This document shows, in pieces, positions 894 through 56,130 of a stretch of 64,000 bases of DNA. Positions within the stretch are counted from its first letter, which is position 1, and every line of letters starts with the position of its first letter. The stretch is taken from the IMG/VR virus record IMGVR_UViG_3300020185_004330, positions 17,141 to 81,140 of that record, one strand, 5' to 3'. The DNA is from a virus. The notes beneath the pieces were generated by a model that did no database searches, was not told where the DNA came from, and saw only the letters and a program-made list of their open reading frames with translations. Both the position numbers and the translations under genes were made by a program.

Positions 894-3854
894 ATGCCAT
901 TTAAAACACCTTTAAATTCAGTATTAACAGAAAGTCAAGACAAAGCTCTTTCTAAGTTAAATTCGCTTAACACCTATGTTACAGCGCCAAAAAGAGTGTT
1001 TCAAAATTTAAAAAAAAGTCAACAAATAAGCACTTTTGACTTATCTGGCAAATTTCTAGATTCAATAGCAGGTCCAGGAATTAAGGATGCTGTTATGCAA
1101 CAGTTTACAAGAAAAATTTTTGCCACATATGGAGAAGACCAGTTTTTACTAGAAGACATAATAATAAAAGCTCTATCAGAATCATTAGATTCTAGAGAAA
1201 TATATTTAGCACCACAACTTCCAAGTGGAACAACTATTGAGTCCTTAACTGGTGGCACATCAGCGGTTACAAATGTTGTAGAATACACTTTTACAGGCAT
1301 TGAAAGACAGGAGGAAAGGGTAAAAGAGAATGTGGCTACTCAATATAGCTATGTAATAGAGTCTATAACAAACCCAGATGATATAGAAGTAAGAAACGGA
1401 GTAGCTTACACTAAGCGTTTTATATTTAGAAATAATATAGGTATACCAGGTTTAATATACAAAAGAGCAGGCAATAGAACTGATGAGGAAATAATCAACA
1501 AAGCTAAAGAGCAGACTGAAGGAGATGGGTTTACTGCTTCAATTAATAATATATTTTACCCACCAGAGGGCACTGTTGTAGAAGTTGATAAGCTTATAGC
1601 TGGAGGTAAGTTTGTTGAAGTTACAAGCAACATACCAGATAAGCTTCCAAAATTAATTGTTGGCACTTATTCTGGAGACACTGGTATGACGATTGATGAA
1701 GTTGTTACGCAAGTAAAGTTAGATATGGGCAATGAAGGATTCTTCTCTCAAGAAAGAGGAATTGAATATCCTCCTACAGGAACTCTTCAAGAAGAGGTGT
1801 CAAGTCTAAGGGGAGATATATCAGGAGAAGTATATGATATAGATGGTAGATATGTGACAGGTGCTTTAGTTGAGATTGTTGGTGCAACACCGCCTTTGGG
1901 TGTCTTAACAGACGCAGATGGGCAGTATTCAATAACTAACCTTACTGCAGGAAAATATGTATTTAAAAGCTCTGCAGCAGGTTACGACTCCACTTTTTTA
2001 GAGGTTGAAGTAAGTGATAGGAAAGATGTTATTAATTATGGAAATTTTAGATTGACCGCAAGCACTATTGATGTCAATGCCTCAGGAACAACCACAGGAA
2101 CAACCACAGGAACAACCACAGGAACAACTGTGGTCAATGGAGACATATATAACACTGCACAGACCACCTCTCAAACAACAAATACTACGGGGGGAACTAC
2201 AGATACAATTAATATCAACTATCAATATTCTACAATAGCAGAGCCTTTATTGTATGAGTTCGATTATCAAAATTTACCACCTAATGCACCAAATGATAAT
2301 TATGAAAGTATATTACTGGTAGTTACAAATAACAGAGGAATACCACCAGCCACTATCACTATAGGCCCTATAGAGGAGGACGGTTTGTTTCAAAACTATA
2401 TTGAACTTAATGAAGAAAAAAACAGATGGATAGAAGCTTTTAATGATTCTGATACAATATATTGGGACGGAGAAGAGTATCCTGGAAGAACAGGCGATTT
2501 ATATAGATTTTCCATATCCAACAATGCAGGCTTACCAATATATGAATTTTCACAATCTGGTGATACTGCTGAAAGTAACTTAAAAAATTCTTTTACAACA
2601 GAAAGGATTGTTAGCGGCGTAACATATCCACCAGAAGGAGCTCAGTTTTTTACTGGTAATAGTGTGGCAGATTCTTCAACATTTTTAGTGACAGGAAATA
2701 CTGGCAGTACTCTAGTGGTTGATTCTTTTGATAATTTTGTTGGAAGTGTAGAGGCCAACATAACTATAGACCAAGATGTTTTAAATGCAGGATTAAGCGG
2801 TATTACTGGTGATTTGAAAAATCAATTAGCTGGCGCATTCTCTTTTAATGTAAATCCAGACGATATAGGTTTGAGTAATAGAGAATATTTAGACAAATAT
2901 TTAAAACCAGTACTAAATGCTGGAAAAAGAGCTTTAGTTGCTCAAATTATTAAAATGATTTTTGGACCTAAAGAAATCATGAGCCCAGACCCAGAAGTTC
3001 AAGAAAAACTCTTAAATTCAGCCGCATGTGGAGAGACTATGTACTCACTATCTAATAATCCTAGTGTAACTGAAAAGGAATTAGAGTTTAATAGAGTCCA
3101 ATTAAAAAAGCAGTTAGAAGCAGGAAAGGTAGAACTAACCGTATCTTGTCAGAAGGTTGAAATAAAACTACCAGAAAACTTTGAAGAAGAATTTGATTTA
3201 AAACCATCTGAAGATGTAGGGTTGCCAGAATCTCAAAGGCCTAACCCTGCAGAGTCTTTAACTCTAGTTAGTAATTATGTCCAATCAGAAATGCAAAGAC
3301 AAAGAAATGAAGAAGACTCAACCCAAGTAAGACAGAGTTTCTTTCAGATAATGATTGAAAAAATAATGCAATACATTAGTGTAGCGTTTGCTTATAGTCC
3401 TGAAATAGGTCAAGTTTTCAGTGTATTAAATACTGAACTTGCAAAAACAGGAAAGGAGTCAATTAGTCCAAAAGAACTTCTTTCAAGCCCTTGTGAAATA
3501 ACTTCAGCATGTAAGAGTGACAATAAAAAAGATTTTGAAGAAAAATCATCATTTTCTAAAAGTATAATAAATTCATTGTACTCTTTAGTTCTTTCTATGT
3601 TAATTAAAAAACTTATTTCAGAAGCTAATTCAAAAATAAGAAAATTAATACAAGAAAAGGCGAAGGAAAAAATACTAAAACTAATAAGAAAGCAAAAAGA
3701 AAGGTTTAAGTTTTTAAGCAAATTAGATGGAGCTATAGATAAGGCTCAGGAATACAAAGACCAAGTTAAAGGTGCTGGATTAAAGGATATCTTTTCATTC
3801 ATAGACAAAAAGAAAGAAGAAGGAGGAGAGTCTGATGAAACAGATACTCTTTAA
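894..3854 (+). CDS. Large putative virion protein with a carboxypeptidase-regulatory-like (transthyretin/Cna-B type) domain
   Basis: 986 aa; ISGEVYDIDGRYVTGALVEIVG...LTDADGQYSITNLTAGKYVFKSSAAGY matches the CarboxypepD_reg-like pattern; upstream of baseplate genes. Confidence 0.55.
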   Translation: MPFKTPLNSVLTESQDKALSKLNSLNTYVTAPKRVFQNLKKSQQISTFDLSGKFLDSIAGPGIKDAVMQQFTRKIFATYGEDQFLLEDIIIKALSESLDSREIYLAPQLPSGTTIESLTGGTSAVTNVVEYTFTGIERQEERVKENVATQYSYVIESITNPDDIEVRNGVAYTKRFIFRNNIGIPGLIYKRAGNRTDEEIINKAKEQTEGDGFTASINNIFYPPEGTVVEVDKLIAGGKFVEVTSNIPDKLPKLIVGTYSGDTGMTIDEVVTQVKLDMGNEGFFSQERGIEYPPTGTLQEEVSSLRGDISGEVYDIDGRYVTGALVEIVGATPPLGVLTDADGQYSITNLTAGKYVFKSSAAGYDSTFLEVEVSDRKDVINYGNFRLTASTIDVNASGTTTGTTTGTTTGTTVVNGDIYNTAQTTSQTTNTTGGTTDTININYQYSTIAEPLLYEFDYQNLPPNAPNDNYESILLVVTNNRGIPPATITIGPIEEDGLFQNYIELNEEKNRWIEAFNDSDTIYWDGEEYPGRTGDLYRFSISNNAGLPIYEFSQSGDTAESNLKNSFTTERIVSGVTYPPEGAQFFTGNSVADSSTFLVTGNTGSTLVVDSFDNFVGSVEANITIDQDVLNAGLSGITGDLKNQLAGAFSFNVNPDDIGLSNREYLDKYLKPVLNAGKRALVAQIIKMIFGPKEIMSPDPEVQEKLLNSAACGETMYSLSNNPSVTEKELEFNRVQLKKQLEAGKVELTVSCQKVEIKLPENFEEEFDLKPSEDVGLPESQRPNPAESLTLVSNYVQSEMQRQRNEEDSTQVRQSFFQIMIEKIMQYISVAFAYSPEIGQVFSVLNTELAKTGKESISPKELLSSPCEITSACKSDNKKDFEEKSSFSKSIINSLYSLVLSMLIKKLISEANSKIRKLIQEKAKEKILKLIRKQKERFKFLSKLDGAIDKAQEYKDQVKGAGLKDIFSFIDKKKEEGGESDETDTL
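2083..2128 (+). repeat. 12-bp tandem repeat (CAGGAACAACCA x ~4) encoding a GTTT linker
   Basis: Read directly in the sequence; protein reads GTTTGTTTGTTTGTT. Confidence 0.95.
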
Positions 3855-3882
3855 TAAAAAATAAAACATAATATTTATAAAC

Positions 3883-4299
3883 ATGGGATGCATAAAGGTA
3901 GATGAAAAATTACAAAAATCAGAAGAACTTTCTAAGTTTATACTATTCTTATTTAAAGAAAATAGAGTTAAGATACCTAAGTTTAGTTTGTTTCAAATAT
4001 TATTATCCAAAACTAGACCTGGTCTAGATAGCGACTCCATAAGTTCAGAAGTTATTTCAAAGTTTGAAAAAATAGGAATTCCATCTGGACCACTTGAAAA
4101 TGGTACTCCAAACGTCATGGAAGAATACACTAAGGTTATGACAGATGAAATAATAGATGCTATACAAACAGATATGAGAGTTGACGTTGCGATAGATGTT
4201 GGAATGACTGTTTTAGGAACTGGAGCAAATGCAGGTGGACCAGTTGTTACTACTGGCTCCAATATTGCTCCTCATAGTGGAAGCGGTTTAGCTACTTAA
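3883..4299 (+). CDS. Hypothetical (probable structural) protein
   Basis: 138-aa ORF in the baseplate operon. Confidence 0.65.
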   Translation: MGCIKVDEKLQKSEELSKFILFLFKENRVKIPKFSLFQILLSKTRPGLDSDSISSEVISKFEKIGIPSGPLENGTPNVMEEYTKVMTDEIIDAIQTDMRVDVAIDVGMTVLGTGANAGGPVVTTGSNIAPHSGSGLAT

Positions 4300-45528: not shown

Positions 45529-45831
45529 TTGTTTTTAATAATGCATGCAAGAAGTCATATAATTAATAATCAAAAAAAATTTTCATATGAAATAAAAAGA
45601 TGGTTAACAAGTGATTTTTCTAAATCAAAAAAAGAGCTAAAAGAAATAGATACGCATGACCAAGACATTATCGAAGCAAAAAAAGAATTAGAATTAAAGT
45701 TTCAAAATATAAAATTAGAAAAAGAAATAAAAAAATTTTTTATAAGTGAAACAAATATATACCCCAAGTTTTACGCTTGGTGGGACGATTATAACCAAAA
45801 AGTAGAAATATTTTTATATGAAAGCAAATAG
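45529..45831 (+). CDS. Hypothetical protein
   Basis: ORF track; start of a co-oriented run. Confidence 0.55.
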   Translation: MFLIMHARSHIINNQKKFSYEIKRWLTSDFSKSKKELKEIDTHDQDIIEAKKELELKFQNIKLEKEIKKFFISETNIYPKFYAWWDDYNQKVEIFLYESK

Positions 45832-46159
45832 AAAAAATACAAAAAATGTTTTAATAGATTTAGCATATAAGGGCTCAATGAATGAGTTTGAAGAGTTTTA
45901 CGGATTTTCAGTTACATATCAAGAATTAGAACAACAAAGCTACATTGAATTCAAAGAAATTATGTTTGAAGTGGTAAATAATAAAATAAAATTCAGAAAA
46001 TACGGAAGAATAGGCAATGTATTGACTGTTAGAGCTGAAATGTATGATGAAGAAATTGAATTATTTGAAAATTTAATACAAAATAATAAGATTAAGACTA
46101 TTTATGATTGGATAGTAAAAGATGTTACAATTATAAAAGAAGAAGAATATGAACAATAA
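45818..46159 (+). CDS. Hypothetical protein
   Basis: Overlapping starts and stops with neighbours. Confidence 0.6.
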   Translation: MKANRKNTKNVLIDLAYKGSMNEFEEFYGFSVTYQELEQQSYIEFKEIMFEVVNNKIKFRKYGRIGNVLTVRAEMYDEEIELFENLIQNNKIKTIYDWIVKDVTIIKEEEYEQ

Positions 46160-46865
46160 AGGAAATACAAAAAAAGAAATGCAAGAAAGGTTTTCTCAAA
46201 TGGGGATACCAACACCAGTAAAGCCCATAACAAACCCAAAATCAGCACCAAAAAATACGGAACTAGCTTCTAAAATGGACCAAATAAGAAACGGCTCACT
46301 AGCAGGCAATTTTAAGCAGTTTATAGATAAGGCTGAAAAAACTTCAAAAATGCCAGCAAATATACCTGTTCCTAAAGTGGGTAAAAATCCAAATGAAAAA
46401 ACCACTAAAGAAACACCATCTCTTAGTAGTTTTTCCCCAAAGTCTAACCCACAAGCTTCAGCAATAGAAGCTATGATGTTTGGTAACTCTTCAGCGCCAG
46501 CAGCATCAATTTCTGAAAATTCAGAAGTTGCAAACTTTGGACCACAAAATGTAGATATTAGAAGCAGATTGCAACAGAGGTTGTCAGAAAAGCAAAGTGA
46601 AGTAAATCAAGAATCTCATTTCTCTCAAGCAACTCAAGCTCATGGCGTTCTAGAAAATCAATTAACTGATGCGGAATTAACAGAAAAAATTACAGAGGTT
46701 GCTAAAAAAGTTTCAAAAGATATGATTAAAAATGTTATTATGGAGCTATCAAAAGCCAAGGGAGGACTTATAGTGGAAAGTAAAAACGTAAAGAAAGCAG
46801 AGATTGTAGCAAAAAACAAAGTAAAAATAGACGGCAAGGTTTATAAGTTAACTCTAGATAAATAA
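46149..46865 (+). CDS. Hypothetical low-complexity protein
   Basis: 238 aa, Pro/Ser/Lys-rich. Confidence 0.65.
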   Translation: MNNKGNTKKEMQERFSQMGIPTPVKPITNPKSAPKNTELASKMDQIRNGSLAGNFKQFIDKAEKTSKMPANIPVPKVGKNPNEKTTKETPSLSSFSPKSNPQASAIEAMMFGNSSAPAASISENSEVANFGPQNVDIRSRLQQRLSEKQSEVNQESHFSQATQAHGVLENQLTDAELTEKITEVAKKVSKDMIKNVIMELSKAKGGLIVESKNVKKAEIVAKNKVKIDGKVYKLTLDK

Positions 46866-47290
46866 TGTCAAAGTCTAATTATAAAATAAAAACTGAAATA
46901 ATAAAAGACAAGCCTTTTGTAACAGTTGAAATGTCATATAAAGATAGCTTTTCTAATGATAAATATATTTTATCTGGCAACCTGAATGAAAGTAAGGTTA
47001 ATTTTACTTTTGTAAAAAACAAAGAACAAAAGATAAATGAAGCATCTTTCTATGCTACAAATGATTTTGGTTCTAGTACATTTATTGAAGAGCTTTCGAA
47101 AGGAGTTAACAACTATGACTTCATTGAAGATTTCAAAAAAAATAACTTAGAAGACTTTACAAAAGAATTATCTGAATTTATTGTAAAGTGTGATTCGTCT
47201 ATGATTTCTGACGGAAAGATGTTTGAAGGGTACAAAAATAAACTAAGAGGTATGGCTGGCATAAGTGAAATAAATGAAAATTTGAGATAA
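46865..47290 (+). CDS. Hypothetical protein
   Basis: TAATG overlap; C-terminal EGYKNKLRGMAGI peptide. Confidence 0.65.
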   Translation: MSKSNYKIKTEIIKDKPFVTVEMSYKDSFSNDKYILSGNLNESKVNFTFVKNKEQKINEASFYATNDFGSSTFIEELSKGVNNYDFIEDFKKNNLEDFTKELSEFIVKCDSSMISDGKMFEGYKNKLRGMAGISEINENLR

Positions 47291-48261
47291 TGTTAATAAA
47301 AAAAGGAAGCAAAGGAAATGAGGTAAAAGAAATACAAAAAGCCTTAGGATTAAATGCTGATGGAATATTTGGAGCATACACTGAAGCGGCTGTAAAAAAA
47401 TATCAAAAATCTAAAGGATTGACGACAGACGGAATTGTTGGTCCTAAAACTTATAAAATACTAATAGGAGAAAATTTAGATGCAGACACCGATAGGTTTG
47501 GTTATGACGAGTCAAACGACAAGGATGATAAGTTAGAATATCTAGGAGCTTACACAACTGAAGACGGATTAAAGATTGATAAGGCCTATTTGGATTCTGA
47601 TGAATATGTAAGAACTTATGGTAAAATAGAGCCAGAAAACTTTTTTATACACCATACAGCAGGCTGGAACAATCCGTACAACACAATAAACTCCTGGAAT
47701 AGAGATAAAAGAGGTAGGGTTGCTACACAATATTGCATTGGAGGAATAAGTATAAAAAAAGGAAAATACGGAGACGATAAATATAATGGAGAAGTTGTAG
47801 AATGTTTTCCAAATGACTACATAGGTTGGCATCTAGGTAAAGTAGGTAATTTTGATATGTCAAAATACTCTTCTGCTGTTGAAGTTAATAATTTTGGTTA
47901 TGTAGTTAAAAAAGGAGATAAGTATTATAACTACGTAAATGTAGAAGTTCCCGAAAGTATGGTTTGTGATTTGGGCTACAAATTTAGAGGGCATCAATAT
48001 TGGCACGCATACACAACAGAACAAATTGAATCTCTAAGACTGTTGATTAAGCACGTTGCGAGAATTTATCCGAAAATAGATATTAAAGCAGGTATACCAC
48101 AACTTCTAAAGGACGGAATGGACCCCAAGGAAGCGTTTGAGTTTAATAAAGATGCTTATTATGGAAAGATAAAGGGGTTATGGAGTCACACGTCAGTACG
48201 TAAAGACAAATTTGATATGTATCCCTGTCCACGTTTAGTAGAAATGCTTAAAAATATTTAG
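47290..48261 (+). CDS. Endolysin: peptidoglycan-binding domain + N-acetylmuramoyl-L-alanine amidase (Amidase_2-like)
   Basis: KKGSKGNEVKEIQKAL..ADGIFG..TEAAVKKYQ....DGIVGPKT; FIHHTAG, SAVEV, WSHTSVRKDKFD. Confidence 0.85.
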   Translation: MLIKKGSKGNEVKEIQKALGLNADGIFGAYTEAAVKKYQKSKGLTTDGIVGPKTYKILIGENLDADTDRFGYDESNDKDDKLEYLGAYTTEDGLKIDKAYLDSDEYVRTYGKIEPENFFIHHTAGWNNPYNTINSWNRDKRGRVATQYCIGGISIKKGKYGDDKYNGEVVECFPNDYIGWHLGKVGNFDMSKYSSAVEVNNFGYVVKKGDKYYNYVNVEVPESMVCDLGYKFRGHQYWHAYTTEQIESLRLLIKHVARIYPKIDIKAGIPQLLKDGMDPKEAFEFNKDAYYGKIKGLWSHTSVRKDKFDMYPCPRLVEMLKNI

Positions 48262-48295
48262 TCAATACTTAATTTTTGGTTCATATTTATTATAT

Positions 48296-48505
48296 ATGAA
48301 AGACTTTTATGTAATATCAGAATCTAACAATAAACCTCTTACTAAAACGGAAATCAAAAAGATTGTAAAAACCGAAATAGAAAGAGCTTTAAATAAAGCT
48401 AAAATTTTAGATAAAGAAGATGTTAGAAAAGTTGTAAAAGATATGATGATAAAACAGTACAAGTTTTTCTGGGAGAAAAAGAGTTTTTGGGTAAATAATA
48501 TTTAA
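48296..48505 (+). CDS. Small hypothetical protein
   Basis: 69-aa ORF with A/T leader. Confidence 0.6.
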   Translation: MKDFYVISESNNKPLTKTEIKKIVKTEIERALNKAKILDKEDVRKVVKDMMIKQYKFFWEKKSFWVNNI

Positions 48506-50294: not shown

Positions 50295-52190
50295 ATGAGC
50301 ACAAACACAATTGTCATAACGAAGCTTAAGTCTAATTATAAAGTAGAATATAATTATAGAAAGAATTTAAGCGACTTCATTAAGGGCTTTCCTGATGACC
50401 AAAGGAAGATAAATGTAGATTACATACAAAATCCTGATGGTACTGGTTATGAGAGTTGGTATAGAGTTGTTTCTGGTGGGTACATAGGTAAAGTTATATC
50501 TTTCATAAAAGATAATGGCATGCCCTTTAAGTTTACCAATTTAAGCCCTGAAGAGGTTGAGCTATTAAGAAAAAATTTTATCAAAAGACAAGAGTCTTTG
50601 CTTAAGGCCTTATCCATAAAGACAGAAAACATAGACACTTCTAAGGTTGATTTCTCATTCATGAATATAGAGCCATATGATTATCAAAAACAAGCTGCAA
50701 TATTTTTTGATGCTTGTAACGGAAGAGCTTTGTTGGGAGACCAGCCAGGCGTTGGAAAGACTGCAGCGGCAATGACTTATGCTTGTTGGAAAGGAAAAAA
50801 AACACTAATCGTATGCCCAGCAAATCTTAGGTTAAATTGGAGAAATGAAATACATAAATTCACGAAAGAAAAAGCTTTTGTGTACAAATGGAAACCAACT
50901 AAAAAATCAAAGAAAATTAATAATTCCAAAGAAGAATCTATGTTTCATATTATGAGCTATAGCTCTTTGGATACATACATAACAATAGAAATGTCTCACA
51001 CTTGTAAAAATGTGTTTTGCGGATGGAAAGGGAGGAATAGTAAAAAAAGATATAAAGACAAAGTTTGCCCTAACTGTGGAGTTAGAGGCATGGTCAATTC
51101 GAGAGCTACCAAAAATATAACATTCACACCAGATAAAATGGGAGAAGTTTTAAATGCGGAGGATTATGAAATATTGATAATGGATGAGGCTCATTATATC
51201 AAAAACAACTCAGCAGACAGAACTAAGTTAGCAAAGAAAACTTTAAAAGATATTCCTCAAAAACTTTTACTTACTGGTACAGCCATAAAAAGCAGACCCT
51301 ATGAATTCTTTTCACTACTTAATTTCCTTTACCCAGAAGAATGGAGTAATGCCCACTCTTTTGGTGTTAAGTATTGTGCTGCAGAAAAAAACAATTTCGG
51401 ATGGGATTATAATGGAGCATCTAATCTAGATGAGTTGTTTGAAAAAATATCACCATTCTTTCTTAGGAGATTAAAAAAAGACATCCTAAAACACTTGCCC
51501 CCAAAAACTTATACAGCAATACCTGTAGAGCTCACCCCTATAGAGATGAGAGAGTACAACAAAATTAAAAAAGGCATAAAAGAAGAGAGTGCTCAAGATG
51601 ACCAAGAAGCTGACAACAGAATGAATCACCTAACTAGGATTCAAAAGCTAAAACAGTTTACTTCCGAAATAAAAATGAAAAGAGCATTTGAGTTTATTCA
51701 AGACATTATTGACGGAGACGAGAAGGTTGTTGTGTTTAGTCAGTACAAAGGAATTTCTTACGAAGTTGCTAATAAATTCGGAGATAAAGCAGTTGTATTT
51801 AATGGAGACATTAATGCAAACAAAAAAGAAGAGGCTGTAGAGGCTTTTATGACAGATGACAATGTCAAGGTCTTCTCTGGAACGATAGGGGCAGCAGGAG
51901 TCGGCATAACGCTTACATCGGCAAGTATTTCAATATTCATTGACCAACCGTGGACTAGTGCAGATAGAGAGCAGGCAGAAGATAGGATACACAGAGCGTC
52001 CTCCACGTCAGATAAAATACAAATCATAAGACTTATATGTCAAGATACAATCGATGAAGATATAGAAAAGCTTTTAAATCAAAAGTCCTCAATATTATCT
52101 AAAGTTTTAGATGGGAAAGAATTTGAGCAGACAGTTGAGGTTAAAGACGGTAATATATTCGGAGATTTAATAAAATTATTATACAACTAA
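50295..52190 (+). CDS. SNF2-family (SF2) helicase/ATPase
   Basis: GDQPGVGKT, IVCPA, MDEAH, LLTGT, PFFLRRLKKD, VVVFSQY, GVGITL, QAEDRIHR. Confidence 0.9.
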   Translation: MSTNTIVITKLKSNYKVEYNYRKNLSDFIKGFPDDQRKINVDYIQNPDGTGYESWYRVVSGGYIGKVISFIKDNGMPFKFTNLSPEEVELLRKNFIKRQESLLKALSIKTENIDTSKVDFSFMNIEPYDYQKQAAIFFDACNGRALLGDQPGVGKTAAAMTYACWKGKKTLIVCPANLRLNWRNEIHKFTKEKAFVYKWKPTKKSKKINNSKEESMFHIMSYSSLDTYITIEMSHTCKNVFCGWKGRNSKKRYKDKVCPNCGVRGMVNSRATKNITFTPDKMGEVLNAEDYEILIMDEAHYIKNNSADRTKLAKKTLKDIPQKLLLTGTAIKSRPYEFFSLLNFLYPEEWSNAHSFGVKYCAAEKNNFGWDYNGASNLDELFEKISPFFLRRLKKDILKHLPPKTYTAIPVELTPIEMREYNKIKKGIKEESAQDDQEADNRMNHLTRIQKLKQFTSEIKMKRAFEFIQDIIDGDEKVVVFSQYKGISYEVANKFGDKAVVFNGDINANKKEEAVEAFMTDDNVKVFSGTIGAAGVGITLTSASISIFIDQPWTSADREQAEDRIHRASSTSDKIQIIRLICQDTIDEDIEKLLNQKSSILSKVLDGKEFEQTVEVKDGNIFGDLIKLLYN

Positions 52191-52195
52191 AAAAC

Positions 52196-52468
52196 ATGAA
52201 AAAACTAAACACTATTTTATACATTCTAATTTTGAGTTTCTTAATTGCAGGATGTGCAGACGTAAGCCCTAACGCAATCGATTGTGTTAATGAATCTTCT
52301 TATGGATTCTTTGGTGGTTTATGGCATGGACTAATATCAATATTTTCTTTTATAGGAAGCCTATTTATGGATGATGTGGCAGTGTATGCCTATAACAACA
52401 ATGGAGCCTTGTATGATTTTGGTTTTTTACTGGGGGCTGGGGCTTTTGCTTCTCGTGCGACAAAGTAG
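52196..52468 (+). CDS. Small lipoprotein/membrane protein
   Basis: Lipobox-like LIAGC; GFFGGLWHG...YDFGFLLG hydrophobic segments. Confidence 0.7.
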   Translation: MKKLNTILYILILSFLIAGCADVSPNAIDCVNESSYGFFGGLWHGLISIFSFIGSLFMDDVAVYAYNNNGALYDFGFLLGAGAFASRATK

Positions 52469-52472
52469 TAAT

Positions 52473-52796
52473 TTGACAATTACAAAACACATACTACTAG
52501 AAGGCAAAAAGTCAGTCAACGGACTAGAAGTTTCTGATAATTTGGGTATAATGAATTGGTATGAGGCAATAGTTGCTTGCAAAAGTTTGGGACCAGGATG
52601 GAGATTGCCAACAAAAGACGAATTGAATATGTTTTATGAAAATAAGGAAGAAATTGGCGGTTTTGCTTTTAACGGCTATTGGAGTTGTACGGATTTCGGG
52701 AACCTCAATGCGTGGAATCAGAATTTCTACGATGGTGTCCAGTACTACAACGGTAAGGACGACTTCATCTATGTTCGCGCTGTTCGGGCTTCTTAA
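52473..52796 (+). CDS. DUF1566/CLec-fold variable protein, copy 1
   Basis: W..A...C..LG.GWRLPTKDEL...YWS...AW...F..G......K....VRAVR; TTG start by parallel with copies 2-5. Confidence 0.85.
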   Translation: MTITKHILLEGKKSVNGLEVSDNLGIMNWYEAIVACKSLGPGWRLPTKDELNMFYENKEEIGGFAFNGYWSCTDFGNLNAWNQNFYDGVQYYNGKDDFIYVRAVRAS

Positions 52797-52816
52797 CAAT
52801 TTAACTATTTAACCAT

Positions 52817-53140
52817 TTGACAATTACAAAACACATATTACTAGAAGACAGAAAGTCAATCAACGGACTAGAAGTGTCTCATAATCTAGGGTCAATGAAT
52901 TGGCATGAAGCAAAAATTGCTTGTAAAAAATTAGGACTAGGATGGAGATTGCCAACAAAAGACGAATTAAATATGCTTTATGAAAATAAGGAAGAAATTG
53001 GCGGTTTTGCTAATGTCAACTATTGGAGTTCTACGGTGTTCGTTAACTCCAGTGCGTGGGCTCAGGGTTTCAACAATGGTAGCCAGTTCTTCGACTTTAA
53101 GTACTTCAACCTCTATGTTCGCGCTGTTCGGGCTTCTTAA
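52817..53140 (+). CDS. DUF1566/CLec-fold variable protein, copy 2
   Basis: Same motifs as copy 1; variable region ~53009-53140. Confidence 0.85.
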   Translation: MTITKHILLEDRKSINGLEVSHNLGSMNWHEAKIACKKLGLGWRLPTKDELNMLYENKEEIGGFANVNYWSSTVFVNSSAWAQGFNNGSQFFDFKYFNLYVRAVRAS

Positions 53141-53160
53141 CAATTTAACTATTTAACCAT

Positions 53161-53484
53161 TTGACAATTAAAAAACACATATTACTAGAATCAAGAAAAG
53201 CAATTAATGGATTAGAAGTCTCTAATAATTTAGGTCGTATGACTTGGTATGAAGCAATAAGTGCTTGCAAGAATTTGGGAACAGGATGGAGATTGCCAAC
53301 AAAAGACGAATTGAATATGCTTTATGAAAACAAGGAAGAAATTGGCGGTTTTGCTAATAACTTCTATTGGAGTTCTACGGAGAACGATAACTACGATGCG
53401 TGGAGACAGTATTTCGGCGATGGTAACCAGTACAACTTCAATAAGCTCGACACACTCTCTGTTCGGGCTGTTCGGGCTTCTTAA
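53161..53484 (+). CDS. DUF1566/CLec-fold variable protein, copy 3
   Basis: Same motifs; variable region ~53353-53484. Confidence 0.85.
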   Translation: MTIKKHILLESRKAINGLEVSNNLGRMTWYEAISACKNLGTGWRLPTKDELNMLYENKEEIGGFANNFYWSSTENDNYDAWRQYFGDGNQYNFNKLDTLSVRAVRAS

Positions 53485-53504
53485 CAATTTAACTATTTAA
53501 CCAT

Positions 53505-53828
53505 TTGACAATTACAAAACACATATTACTAGAAGGTAAAAAGTCAATCAATGGATTAGAAGTCTCTAATAATTTAGGATATATGACTTGGCATGAAGCA
53601 ATAAGTGCTTGCAAAAAATTAGGAACAGGATGGAGATTGCCAACGAAAGACGAATTGAATATGCTTTATGAAAACAAGGAAGAAATTGGCGGTTTTGCTT
53701 ATTTCTTCTATTGGAGTTCTACGGAGACTGGTAACGGCAGTGCGTGGGTTCAGTATTTCTCCAATGGTGTCCAGGGCTACTACAATAAGCTCAACTGCTA
53801 CTGTGTTCGCGCTGTTCGGGCTTCTTAA
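53505..53828 (+). CDS. DUF1566/CLec-fold variable protein, copy 4
   Basis: Same motifs; variable region ~53697-53828. Confidence 0.85.
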   Translation: MTITKHILLEGKKSINGLEVSNNLGYMTWHEAISACKKLGTGWRLPTKDELNMLYENKEEIGGFAYFFYWSSTETGNGSAWVQYFSNGVQGYYNKLNCYCVRAVRAS

Positions 53829-53848
53829 CAATTTAACTATTTAACCAT

Positions 53849-54175
53849 TTGACAATTACAAAACACATACTACTAGAAGGCAAAAAGTCAGTCAACGGAC
53901 TAGAAGTTTCTGATAATTTGGGTATAATGAATTGGTATGACGCAAAAATTTACTGCAAAAAATTAGGAGCAGAATGGAGATTGCCAACAAAAGACGAATT
54001 GAATATGCTTTATGAAAACAAGGAAGAAATTGGCGGTTTTTCTAATAAGTTCTTCTATTGGAGTTCTACGGAGTTCGATTTCTCCAGTGCGTGGACTCAG
54101 AATTTCCTCCTTGGTTACCAGGGCACCAACAATAAGGACAACGTCACCTATGTTCGCGCTGTTCGGGCTTCTTAA
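53849..54175 (+). CDS. DUF1566/CLec-fold variable protein, copy 5
   Basis: Same motifs; variable region ~54041-54175 with one extra codon. Confidence 0.85.
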   Translation: MTITKHILLEGKKSVNGLEVSDNLGIMNWYDAKIYCKKLGAEWRLPTKDELNMLYENKEEIGGFSNKFFYWSSTEFDFSSAWTQNFLLGYQGTNNKDNVTYVRAVRAS

Positions 54176-54209
54176 CAATTTAACTATTTAACAATTAAAA
54201 TAAATATAT

Positions 54210-54241
54210 TTTTTATCTAATGTAATATTTTTATATATTTG
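54210..54241 (+). promoter_or_regulatory. Bacteroidota-type promoter candidate (-7 box TATATTTG) upstream of the tRNA cluster
   Basis: TAnnTTTG match at 54234-54241. Confidence 0.45.
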
Positions 54242-54290
54242 TCGTTAGGTAAGAAAAGGTTCTTTGAAATGTTGGAAAAGTAATTTAAAT

Positions 54291-54367
54291 GGACGGGTAG
54301 CTCAGCTGGATAGAGCCACGCACTTCTAATGCGTAGGTCGAAGGTTCGAATCCTTCTCCGTTCACCA
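54291..54367 (+). tRNA. tRNA-Arg (anticodon UCU)
   Basis: Full cloverleaf; anticodon arm ACGCA-CTTCTAA-TGCGT; GGTTCGAATCC T-arm; encoded CCA. Confidence 0.95.
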
Positions 54368-54373
54368 TTTATA

Positions 54374-54682
54374 GGGCCTCTAGCTCAGATGGTTAGAGCA
54401 ACTGACTCATTAGTAATAGTGCCGTTAGCAAGAAATTGTTAAATGTGAATGGGGTGAATTCAAGGAAATCTTAACACGTAACGGTGATGACAACCATGAG
54501 CCAAGTCTGTGGTACACCACAGAAAGGTGCAGAGACTACTGGAGAAGTTTAGCCTTCTTAATAACCAGGTTTAGCGCCCCAAACCCTAACGTAAAGACGA
54601 GGGTTATGAGATAGTCCACAGAGTTATGAAAATAACACAAATGTGAATCAGTAGGTCACAGGTTCGAATCCTGTGGGGCCCA
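54374..54682 (+). tRNA. tRNA(CAU), probably Ile2 (lysidine type), split by an intron: exons 54374-54410 and 54646-54682
   Basis: Joined exons give a cloverleaf with ACTGA-CTCATAA-TCAGT; G1-C72 and no GGG/CCC anticodon stem, so not an initiator tRNA. Confidence 0.85.
54411..54645 (+). ncRNA. ORF-less group I intron (IC3-like, 235 nt)
   Basis: 5' exon ends in U and intron ends in G; P AATTCAAGGAAA, Q AACCATGAGC, R GTGCAGAGACTA, S GAGATAGTCC; P3 GGGGTG/CGCCCC. Confidence 0.85.
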
Positions 54683-54710
54683 CTAAGCTTTTTTATGACT
54701 ATTTATAGTT

Positions 54711-55592
54711 ATGGAAAAGAAAAAGTGTGTTAATTGTGATTTGGAATTTGAATCTAAATCTAAAACAAAGAAGTTTTGTAGTGTAAAATGTTCTTGTTCT
54801 TACAACAATAAAAGAAAAGAAAACACTAGCAAAAAAAGTGAAGTAAAAGAAAAGCTTAGAAAAAAAGCCCTAGAACAATACGACAAAAAGTATGGAGCCT
54901 TAAAAAAGTTTGATGTTAATTGTAAATGTTGTGGAGCTATAGTTGTTGTAGAAGAAAGGGAAAAACAGTTTCCCAAAAAAGATAAATACTTTTGCTCAAA
55001 GTCATGTAGCAATACTAGGCGTCACACATCTGAAACTAAAAGTAAGATAAGCAATTCTTTACATGGTACTGGCAACAAGGATGTATTTATAACTTGTAAA
55101 CAGTGTAATGTTAAGTTTGAGCGCAAATGGACAAAGAGAAATCAGAAATTTTGTTCCCGAAGTTGTGCCTCTAAATTTGTTAGTAATACAGAAGAAAGAA
55201 AAAGTTTACAAAGTTTAATAGGTAGAAGGTCTGCTGCTAAGCAATCTATAGAAAGAAGGAGTAAAAATGAAATTCATTTTGCCAACCTTTGTAAGGAAGA
55301 GTTTAGAAAAGTAATTACAAATGAGCCTATTTTTAACGGCTGGGATGCTGATGTTATAGTTCAAGATTTAAATATAGCTGTACTTTGGAATGGTAAATGG
55401 CATTATGAGAAAATTACTGAATCACACTCAGTTTCTCAAGTTCAAAATAGAGATAAAATTAAAATAAAAGAAATAAAAAAAGCAGGATATATTCCATATG
55501 TTATAAAAGATATGGGAAGAGCTAATAAAGAAAAAGTTGAAAAAGAATTTAAAAAATTTATAAAATTTGTAAATCAAATTAAATTGCGATAA
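54711..55592 (+). CDS. Free-standing putative homing endonuclease (Zn-ribbon repeats + Vsr/PD-(D/E)XK-like C-terminus)
   Basis: Three CxxC...FCSxxC repeats; NEPIFNGWDADVIV..LNIAVLWNGKWHY. Confidence 0.65.
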   Translation: MEKKKCVNCDLEFESKSKTKKFCSVKCSCSYNNKRKENTSKKSEVKEKLRKKALEQYDKKYGALKKFDVNCKCCGAIVVVEEREKQFPKKDKYFCSKSCSNTRRHTSETKSKISNSLHGTGNKDVFITCKQCNVKFERKWTKRNQKFCSRSCASKFVSNTEERKSLQSLIGRRSAAKQSIERRSKNEIHFANLCKEEFRKVITNEPIFNGWDADVIVQDLNIAVLWNGKWHYEKITESHSVSQVQNRDKIKIKEIKKAGYIPYVIKDMGRANKEKVEKEFKKFIKFVNQIKLR

Positions 55593-55664
55593 TGGTGTAG
55601 GAAAGGTCTCATGAGCCTTTTTGGGAGATATCCCTCCGTCAAGTTCGAATCTTGAAATCGCGAC
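55585..55664 (+). tRNA. Atypical tRNA-like element, CAU anticodon, degenerate D-arm, long variable arm
   Basis: TGCGAT/ATCGCG acceptor pairing, AAGGT-CTCATGA-GCCTT arm, GGGA-GATA-TCCC arm, TCAAG-TTCGAAT-CTTGA T-arm; only ~11 nt lie where the D-arm should be. Confidence 0.45.
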
Positions 55665-55666
55665 TA

Positions 55667-56130
55667 AGCAAGCAGCTGTCACCTTCAACTTTAATAAGGA
55701 GAGTTTAATAGTCACTTCTTAGACACTGCTTGCATCTTATTAACCTGACACAGCGGGTTATTAGAGGTTGTACGGTCCAAATTTACTCTTTAAAGCCTTA
55801 AGGGACCTATGCTGGAGAACCAGACGATGGAGTGATGAAACCTTGGACATTTAGCTGATGCATTAGCTGATGTTTATATGGGAATAAGCCATTTGAAAGA
55901 ACGGGGCGGACTGTGAAAAAAACTGCCCCTTTTTAAGACATTTAAAATTCGTGCTGTTTAATCAACGGCTAGTCCAGTTCATAGGACGATGAGAAATGGT
56001 ATGATAACCATAATGGAGATACTCCAACAGTAGTTAAGTCTACACAAGTGTTCAGGATAGGTGTGAGTCGTTGTTGACACCCTGCCGCCAGGTATTGGAA
56101 GAAGCGTCCTTGAGATAGCACCCGCTTGAT
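55667..56130 (+). ncRNA. Unassigned structured non-coding region (probably two or three RNAs)
   Basis: No credible ORF (only a 95-aa antisense frame clips its 5' end), higher GC than flanks, many stems, terminator-like GGGGCGG/CTGCCCC-TTTTT at ~55903-55934. Confidence 0.5.

Follow-up and report, generated by a model that had tools for sequence, protein, structure and literature searches.

A tandem array of lectin-fold genes

Diversity-generating retroelements (DGRs) are treated as self-contained units in which the maker of the mutagenic complementary DNA (cDNA) owns the gene that it diversifies. The present analysis concerns five candidate DGR target genes on a marine giant phage, represented by the 87,981-nucleotide (nt) IMG/VR virus record IMGVR_UViG_3300020185_004330 (G000). 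The window, i.e. the whole stretch of 64,000 nt that was analysed, comprises bases 17,141–81,140 of this record. At 52,473–54,175 it contains five head-to-tail copies (c1 to c5) of a 344-nt unit, each encoding a small protein of 107–108 amino acids (aa) with a TTG start codon and a hypervariable end. The genes are followed by the end of the site for initiation of mutagenic homing (IMH) and by an AT-rich triple repeat:

52473..52796, + strand: c1 mini-target gene, 107 aa, TTG start, Lcl_C / C-type-lectin fold; variable region 52654–52788
52789..52816, + strand: IMH end and AT-rich triple repeat (CTTCTTAAC-AATTTAAC-TATTTAAC-CATTT) after c1, invariant in 5/5 copies
52817..53140, + strand: c2 mini-target gene; variable region 52998–53132
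53133–53160, + strand: same AT-rich element, after c2
53161..53484, + strand: c3 mini-target gene; variable region 53342–53476
53477–53504, + strand: same AT-rich element, after c3
53505..53828, + strand: c4 mini-target gene; variable region 53686–53820
53821–53848, + strand: same AT-rich element, after c4
53849..54175, + strand: c5 mini-target gene, 108 aa; variable region 54033–54167
54168–54195, + strand: same AT-rich element, after c5

The additional codon of c5 appears in the alignment as a 3-nt insertion at the 5′ edge of its variable region. In some assemblies shorter genes are called from an ATG codon; these are probably truncated, and the N-terminal strand 'NGLEVS' is part of the mini-gene domain. 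Both c1 (39.4 bits) and c3 (52.3 bits) exceed the gathering cut-off of 34.9 for the Pfam family Lcl_C/DUF1566 (PF07603). An AlphaFold2 model of c3, with a predicted local distance difference test score of 87.8 and a predicted template modelling (TM) score of 0.79, adopts a C-type-lectin fold; its best Foldseek match is the C-terminal domain of Legionella Lcl (8q4e, E = 8e-8, TM 0.78, root-mean-square deviation 1.7 Å), followed by the C-type lectin domains of snake-venom proteins and langerin. The phage proteins have no signal peptide, and tandem copies number 1, 3 or 5 in sister phages. Two sister contigs, G001 and G002, are 80–90% identical to the record at the nucleotide level and carry 3 and 1 copies, respectively. 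A second lineage (G003/G006) has two copies in each genome and has only the array in common with G000 (3 of 88 open reading frames, ORFs).

The last ~135 nt of each mini-gene display NNC/NNT variation, typical of a DGR, on an invariant skeleton. The original prediction, made from the letters of the window, had read the array as DGR targets with no reverse transcriptase (RT), template repeat (TR) or accessory gene nearby, and most of the observations behind it were borne out. The motif TATTGGAGTTSTACGG is indeed confined to the five copies, where it occurs on the + strand at 52677, 53021, 53365, 53709 and 54056 in the same register of the 344-nt tandem repeat; 0.05 matches are expected in shuffled sequences, and a single match with two mismatches on the − strand is noise. 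None of the five copies is the un-mutated, all-AAC version. The absence of a hairpin after the IMH was equally confirmed, DNA folds of 66–71 nt at each variable-region end giving z values between +0.33 and −0.62 relative to shuffles, and the downstream sequence quoted at the time turned out to be the conserved AT-rich repeat, likewise present after each of the bacterial variable regions in the family. This direct repeat, three times NATTTAWC directly after the IMH, is found at all bacterial and phage variable regions of the family and also in the G004/G005 family described below. It is a candidate cis element that probably takes the place of the hairpin/cruciform of the Bordetella phage BPP-1 system. 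A remark on unusual codons was right in part: the variable regions are richer in GC (48%) than the window (32%). The CGC, CGG, GCG and ACG codons belong to the invariant skeleton, which is letter for letter that of the TR; it is the template that imposes them, and they do not in themselves betray foreign DNA.

Template repeats in bacterial cassettes

A DGR alters only the adenines of its template, by means of adenine-mutagenized cDNA made from the TR. The template can therefore be read from its copies by writing A at the variable columns and leaving the invariant columns unchanged. The TR core predicted in this manner (24–30 nt; the 24-nt core is TTCAACAATGGTAACCAGAACAAC) occurs neither in the window nor anywhere else in the record, and among IMG/VR viral contigs the 30-mer retrieved only unrelated GC-rich DGR templates. 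It matched 19 JGI metagenome contigs and 12 species-genome contigs. As had been suggested at the outset, TR and RT were also sought in the rest of the record; the cognate TR was found in chromosomal cassettes only. The best TRs, namely L044, L068 from a Crocinitomicaceae metagenome-assembled genome (MAG) and L073/L077 from a Tara Flavobacteriales MAG, agree with the prediction across ~135 nt. TR and variable regions part company only after …GTTCGGG, where the TR continues with GTTTTAAAC and the variable regions with CTTCTTAAC, which makes them a classic IMH*/IMH pair. The 3′ end of the variable regions reads …GTTCGGGCTTCTTAAC as compared to …GTTCGGGGTTTTAAAC in the TR, and the last homologous base is the same in all bacterial pairs of TR and variable region. 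Scanning with the IMH 24-mer yielded further variable regions and nothing else.

A comparison of the five copies with the L044 TR gives 118 differences at adenine sites and 6 at non-adenine positions (Fisher p = 4e-51). The individual values (A/non-A) are 23/3 for c1, 27/0 for c2, 19/2 for c3, 28/1 for c4 and 21/0 for c5, the latter counted downstream of the indel. The L044 and L068 TRs match c2, the first and third copies of G001, the first copy of G006 and the first copy of the strain L082 at all non-adenine positions. Several variable regions thus have no non-adenine divergence from the TR although their scaffolds differ by 10–30%. Judging by the adenine-only pattern, the TR match and the IMH*/IMH pair taken together, the ends of the array are real DGR variable regions with a real cognate TR, located in other genomes.

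The TR sits in a canonical cassette consisting of an Lcl_C target, bAvd, the TR and an RVT_1 gene, with the variable region in cis ~720–800 nt upstream of the TR. All TR contigs with usable context are bacterial chromosome from marine or aquatic Bacteroidota, and cassettes were found in MAGs of both Flavobacteriales and Crocinitomicaceae. A 199-kb Flavobacteriales contig carries in addition a D-Ala-D-Ala carboxypeptidase (Peptidase_S13), glycosyl- and sulfotransferases, OmpA and Wzz; on further contigs the TR neighbours include proteins sorted by the type IX secretion system, an amine oxidase and thioredoxin, a type I restriction-modification system, ADH, PaaA and a histidine kinase, and SpoIIE/TPR regulators. 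The bAvd gene is present in all bacterial cassettes, and the cognate RTs are 79–84% identical to one another. The nearest viral RT in IMG/VR, obtained with an RT alignment as query, is 62% identical (L126) and accompanied by a different TR with indels, while the L041 RT as single query found only relatives of 51–56% identity (L050–L052) with an unrelated TR. One of these, L051 (6663–11002; IMGVR_UViG_3300023179_004710), is a distant relative of G003/G006 and encodes a canonical DGR (276-aa target, Avd, TR and RT) in which 22 A and 2 non-A mismatches were counted. This DGR adjoins a 532-aa TPT-repeat protein and separates homologues of genes that lie side by side in G006.

The marine Bacteroidota cassettes (L044, L068, L077, L075, L098) share with the phage the same TR (0–3 non-A differences), the IMH, the AT-rich downstream repeats and the Lcl_C/DUF1566 target domain. 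In the L037/L098 cassette the target is a 134-aa mini-protein 62–68% identical to those of the phage. By contrast, the targets of the bacterial cassettes are secreted proteins or lipoproteins, often with collagen repeats, and there is one per cassette; moreover they end in …RAF (GGGCTTTTTAA) while the phage copies end in …RAS (GGGCTTCTTAA). On comparison of all these sequences, the variable regions of the phage are shown to have been templated by a TR indistinguishable from the bacterial ones.

Three oddities among the bacterial loci deserve mention. In L033 (Ga0115008_10102461) the TR beside the RT has adenine-site substitutions like those of a variable region, reading …TGGATGCAGGGT… instead of …TGGAAACAGAAT…; this TR may have received mutagenized information or have been converted from a variable region. 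In L068 (Crocinitomicaceae MAG ALOHA_ZT_7, 2728–3953), whose TR is one base away from the best match, the RT is split into ORFs of 228 and 180 aa by a frameshift or an assembly error. A site in the Crocinitomicaceae MAG (G009:C158:37303-37448, i.e. L122 503–648), far from the cassette and located on a contig of 984 kb, was considered as a cognate remote target and rejected because of 14 non-A mismatches to the TR. It has an intact IMH of the family and a 3′ end like that of a variable region, and is thus an old or differently templated remote target.

Origin of the variable regions

The predicted lack of an RT near the array was confirmed: over its entire length, the 87,981-nt record contains neither a match to RVT_1 nor a TR skeleton. 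Walking along ENA and Logan assemblies by means of exact-protein look-ups lengthened the phage sequence by 9.8 kb at its 5′ end and by ~55 kb at its 3′ end, giving ~153 kb of contiguous sequence; 12.6 kb of contig_31778 and 5.7 kb of scaffold_353 were left out of the walk. Hidden Markov models (HMMs) for RT and Avd were built from the cassettes and scored 703–859 and 193–250 bits on positive controls. Over the ~153 kb of this incomplete genome their best match did not go beyond E = 0.35, and nowhere does the sequence come within 3 mismatches of the 24-nt TR core. The supposition that the retroelement acts from more than 10 kb away is thus true at least, no RT, Avd or TR being present in the ~80 kb upstream or the ~72 kb downstream; in particular, a TR/RT cassette just outside the window, which would make this an ordinary multi-target DGR, was not found. 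There is no bAvd (PF22296) in G000–G003 or G006, the genome of G000 being incomplete, and no RT, bAvd or TR in G001, G002, G003 and G006. The negative result covers 92 kb of the second lineage, which apart from its array is unrelated to the first. A search for relatives with a 1017-aa phage protein as query found nothing.

Other strains could be identified by means of the SNF2-family helicase encoded to the left of the array, the exact protein being present on ENA contigs of 93, 71 and 3 kb. Samples containing the phage are represented by ENA ERZ10646689, ERZ807187, ERZ23491195 and related KOPF15-1 assemblies and by Tara SAMEA4398387. Three strains, 97.7–99.6% identical, carry three different alleles of c1. 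All five alleles of L080 are those of the window. L081 shows 54 differences from the window over 13.7 kb: 37 fall within the variable region of c1, 13 in other parts of the array and 4 in the ~12.2 kb outside. Its c2 allele is identical to that of L080. In L082, c1 is represented by a third allele, free of non-A differences from the TR. Given these alleles, copy 1 must have been rewritten at least twice while the rest of the genome gathered only a few substitutions. Diversification of the array is recent or ongoing and the array is not frozen. The proposal that it might be a frozen snapshot or captured repertoire, for which identical alleles in related phages would have been expected, is therefore contradicted by the differing copy 1 alleles of near-identical strains.

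Two further observations may concern exchange. A patch of ~2.7 kb in the window (45600–48300) is ~90% identical to L080 while the rest is 99.7–100% identical, which suggests a recombination mosaic, the five alleles being nonetheless the same in both. The first copies of G001 (G001:C1:3238 region) and G006 (G006:C1:75914 region) share an allele, adenine sites included, on contigs from the same metagenome assembly that are otherwise unrelated and whose gene scaffolds are ~90% identical. This might reflect a recent exchange of the variable region, but cross-threading of the assembly graph through identical flanks could produce it too, and for this reason the shared allele was not used as evidence.

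The few non-A differences from the L044 TR are non-random in that they match other natural TR variants. This holds for 2/2 deviations in c3 of the window, 5/6 in c2 of G001 and 1–2/3 in c1 of L081. In c3 both non-A states are those of the L037/L098 TR variant. For the single copy of G002 all 7 deviations could be assigned to TR variants, six exactly and the seventh at a position where the L073 TR has an adenine. The matching variants (L037/L098, L071/L067 and L066) all come from bacterial cassettes. Each bacterial variable region in cis bears the 3′ variant of its own TR, so that such a signature identifies the writer, and at least three TRs have written into the phage arrays. Within the templated span, there is no substitution common to the phage copies and absent from the bacterial TRs. 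Beyond this span, every phage copy retains a phage-specific C (…GGGCTTCTTAA as opposed to …GGGCTTTTTAA in every bacterial target) located 3–9 nt past the last TR-specific base, which means that the imported information stops within 3–9 nt, at the DGR transfer boundary. The fixed boundary combined with mixed signatures favours retrohoming into phage DNA over the capture of finished alleles. A single resident phage TR would not easily give rise to such a mixture.

We therefore favour, with a probability of roughly 0.55, a scheme in which the phage array is written in trans by DGRs residing on host chromosomes. The mini-genes would be the DGR targets on the phage, with bAvd, TR and RT in the chromosome of a Bacteroidota host. 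During infection the host cassette would make adenine-mutagenized cDNA from its own TR, while the phage copies would supply what is needed in cis: 5′ homology (TTGGCGGTTTTGCT), the IMH (…GTTCGGG|C) and, where a hairpin might be expected, the AT-rich NATTTAWC triple repeat. Some ~135 nt of the phage copy, up to the IMH boundary, would then give way to the cDNA, and passage through hosts with slightly different TRs would leave different copies with different TR signatures. We infer that the writing takes place on phage DNA inside a DGR-bearing host and that the bacteria in question are the hosts of the phage.

Such writing in trans accounts for the bacterial location of the TRs, their absence from viral collections and from the 153 kb, the mixed signatures and the fixed boundary. 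The use of a host DGR, which had figured among the initial suggestions, is now the best-supported reading given that the cognate TR occurs only in bacterial chromosomal cassettes and in none of the IMG/VR viral contigs. Several points nevertheless weigh against it. The links to a host are weak: a baseplate protein is 27% identical to Flavobacterium phages, and a cassette of the cognate type exists in the same sample series but was not shown for the same sample. Conservation of the TRs between bacterial orders is such that a copy carried by a phage could look 'bacterial' as well. The record is a fragment, estimated by CheckV to be ~27% complete, the ends of the 153-kb span neither overlap nor close into a circle, and perhaps half of the phage genome is unseen. 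The Pfam annotations of the walked contigs were precomputed, though our own HMM scan of the DNA agrees with them. Furthermore, the distant relatives L050 and L051 encode a canonical DGR of their own, inserted ~5 kb from the syntenic array position and with an unrelated TR. The phage might then possess its own bAvd-TR-RT cassette in the unassembled part of its genome, more than 72–80 kb from the array, that diversifies the five genes. Multiple and non-adjacent targets of phage DGRs are indeed known, usually within 50 kb (PMC5758913). Such a remote phage cassette is the main rival, though we consider it the less likely of the two. Besides the absence of RT, Avd and TR from the 153 kb and from the 92 kb of the second lineage, the exact 24–30-nt TR core is found in 0 IMG/VR contigs, and viral RTs are at most 62% identical to the cognate RT clade. 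The several TR variant signatures in one array are unexplained by a single resident TR, and the same 'bacterial' TR would have to be present in both of two lineages with nothing but the array in common.

It is also conceivable that finished variable regions, diversified in bacterial genes, reached the phage by homologous recombination or gene conversion, with no retrohoming on phage DNA. The host targets in cis and the phage copies share the 5′ block and the AT-rich downstream repeats, which would provide recombination homology, and a bacterial mini-target of the L037 type is 62–68% identical to the phage proteins. Replaced alleles in strains that hardly differ otherwise would fit this route just as well. 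However, import ends 3–9 nt before the phage-specific base (…GGGCTTC versus bacterial …GGGCTTT) in every copy. That the same boundary is seen with three TR signatures, and in the single-copy phage G002, is implausibly narrow for repeated crossovers, and we judge such capture improbable, even if later homogenization of the spacers within arrays could blur the boundary argument. Still harder to sustain is the idea that the array is an inactive relic of a lost DGR now subject only to ordinary mutation. It would fit the lack of machinery on the contig and the identity of the c2–c4 alleles in three strains and of c5 in two. Yet the concentration of 37 of the 54 L081 differences in the c1 variable region, a third c1 allele in L082 without any non-A change, and several variable regions free of non-A divergence on scaffolds that differ by 10–30% make it very improbable indeed.

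Neighbouring genes, a second array and known systems

The genes and elements that surround the array are the following:

50295..52190, + strand: SNF2-family helicase, conserved left neighbour of the array (Pfam SNF2-rel_dom, 3.7e-34)
52196..52468, + strand: 90-aa ORF directly 5′ of c1, lipoprotein-type signal (…LIAGC); other assemblies annotate it as a gene
54291–54367, + strand: tRNA-Arg(TCT), outside the DGR feature (ARAGORN)
54375–54690, + strand: tRNA with a group I intron at 54402–54638 (Rfam Intron_gpI, 80.8 bits), outside the DGR feature

The 90-aa ORF has no Pfam match and belongs to no known family. The intron-bearing tRNA is missed by ARAGORN. Directly 3′ of it lies a 293-aa ORF (54711–55592) with repeated CxxC pairs and a borderline NUMOD3 match (20.3 bits, cut-off 20.4), a possible free-standing homing endonuclease. 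The ~540 nt that follow (55593–56130) contain no ORF of at least 100 aa, the longest being a 95-aa GTG frame at the left edge, and no Rfam family at the gathering threshold; a T-arm-like segment at 55640–55669 is 70% identical to the tRNA 3′ end at 54659–54688. Phage sequences 5′ of the window (L084 / L091) and the 3′ extension (L120) contain a large polysaccharide-synthesis block with several glycosyltransferases, a NodZ/FUT8-like protein, epimerases of the GDP-mannose dehydratase type and a DegT aminotransferase. Further downstream are a PrkA-DUF444-SpoVR module, a PheRS-like gene, a CCA/poly(A) polymerase, MazG and UvdE.

A second array of mini Lcl_C genes without RT (L010/L011) was encountered in two phage records of 47 and 51 kb (G004 and G005), which are 96–98% identical circular permutations and together represent a closed genome of ~51 kb:

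G004:C1:41115-43408 (L108:1115-3408): second mini Lcl_C array
G005:C1:25400-27700: the same array in the permuted record

These genes end in …GTTCGCCCGGTGCTAGCTTTGTAATTTTAACYATTTAAC; the IMH-like GTTCGCCCGGTGCTAG stands at the end of the copies, and TTTTAACYATTTAAC repeats come after it. Copies 2 and 3 differ between G004 and G005 in an NNC pattern, while copy 1 is degenerate and identical in both. Neither record contains an RT, Avd or TR, and the predicted TR pattern found nothing in IMG/VR. The closest longer homologue (P0001) lies on an alphaproteobacterial-looking chromosome with no RT nearby. It is the mutation pattern that marks the family as a candidate for DGR targeting, and its reading as a second RT-less array of DGR targets is suggestive only.

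In a more general form, lytic phages would carry 'hitch-hiking' arrays of DGR targets that rely wholly on the chromosomal DGR of the host. Each infection of a DGR-bearing host could rewrite a copy, providing a hypervariable repertoire of binders without a mutator, and the TR signatures would record the host lineages passed through; we would give this generalization about even odds. If true, a virus that has only the cis target sites and borrows the host RT would represent a new kind of host–virus coupling, and a class of hypervariable viral proteins would escape surveys that demand an RT on the same contig. The TR signatures of such arrays could be used to link uncultured phages to their hosts, and the 107-aa lectin-fold scaffold with its portable targeting module of ~160 nt might be usable for in vivo diversification tools. 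The RT-less array of G004/G005 would help to make the coupling between host retroelements and viral genes general. No natural case of a host DGR acting on a phage was found in the literature searched, an absence there that is not proof.

In the laboratory, plasmid-borne avd-TR-brt acts in trans on phage lacking these components (PMC3240598; PMC5758913). The main survey of DGRs argues against a split between phage and cellular components, which would then not be inherited together (PMC5758913). The BPP-1 DGR (mtd-avd-TR-brt; Guo et al. 2011, PMC3240598) resembles the present case in the adenine-specific transfer from TR to variable region, in the position of the variable region at the C-terminus of a protein with a C-type-lectin fold, and in the IMH/IMH* pair that sets direction and boundary; its machinery is able to act in trans on phage that lack it. 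It contrasts with the array described here in three respects. The machinery was located in bacterial chromosomes and is absent from all phage sequence seen, the targets are five stand-alone genes of 107 aa in tandem instead of one tail-fibre gene, and the GC-rich hairpin/cruciform after the IMH is replaced by the AT-rich NATTTAWC triple repeat, the bacterial members of the family included. A closer parallel to the distance between TR and targets is offered by bacterial DGRs with remote targets, as in Treponema denticola and cyanobacteria (Wu et al. 2018, PMC5758913), where one TR/RT serves distant targets that were assigned, as here, through their A-only mismatches. Those targets share a genome with their RT, whereas in the present case the targets are viral and the cognate TRs lie on cellular chromosomes.

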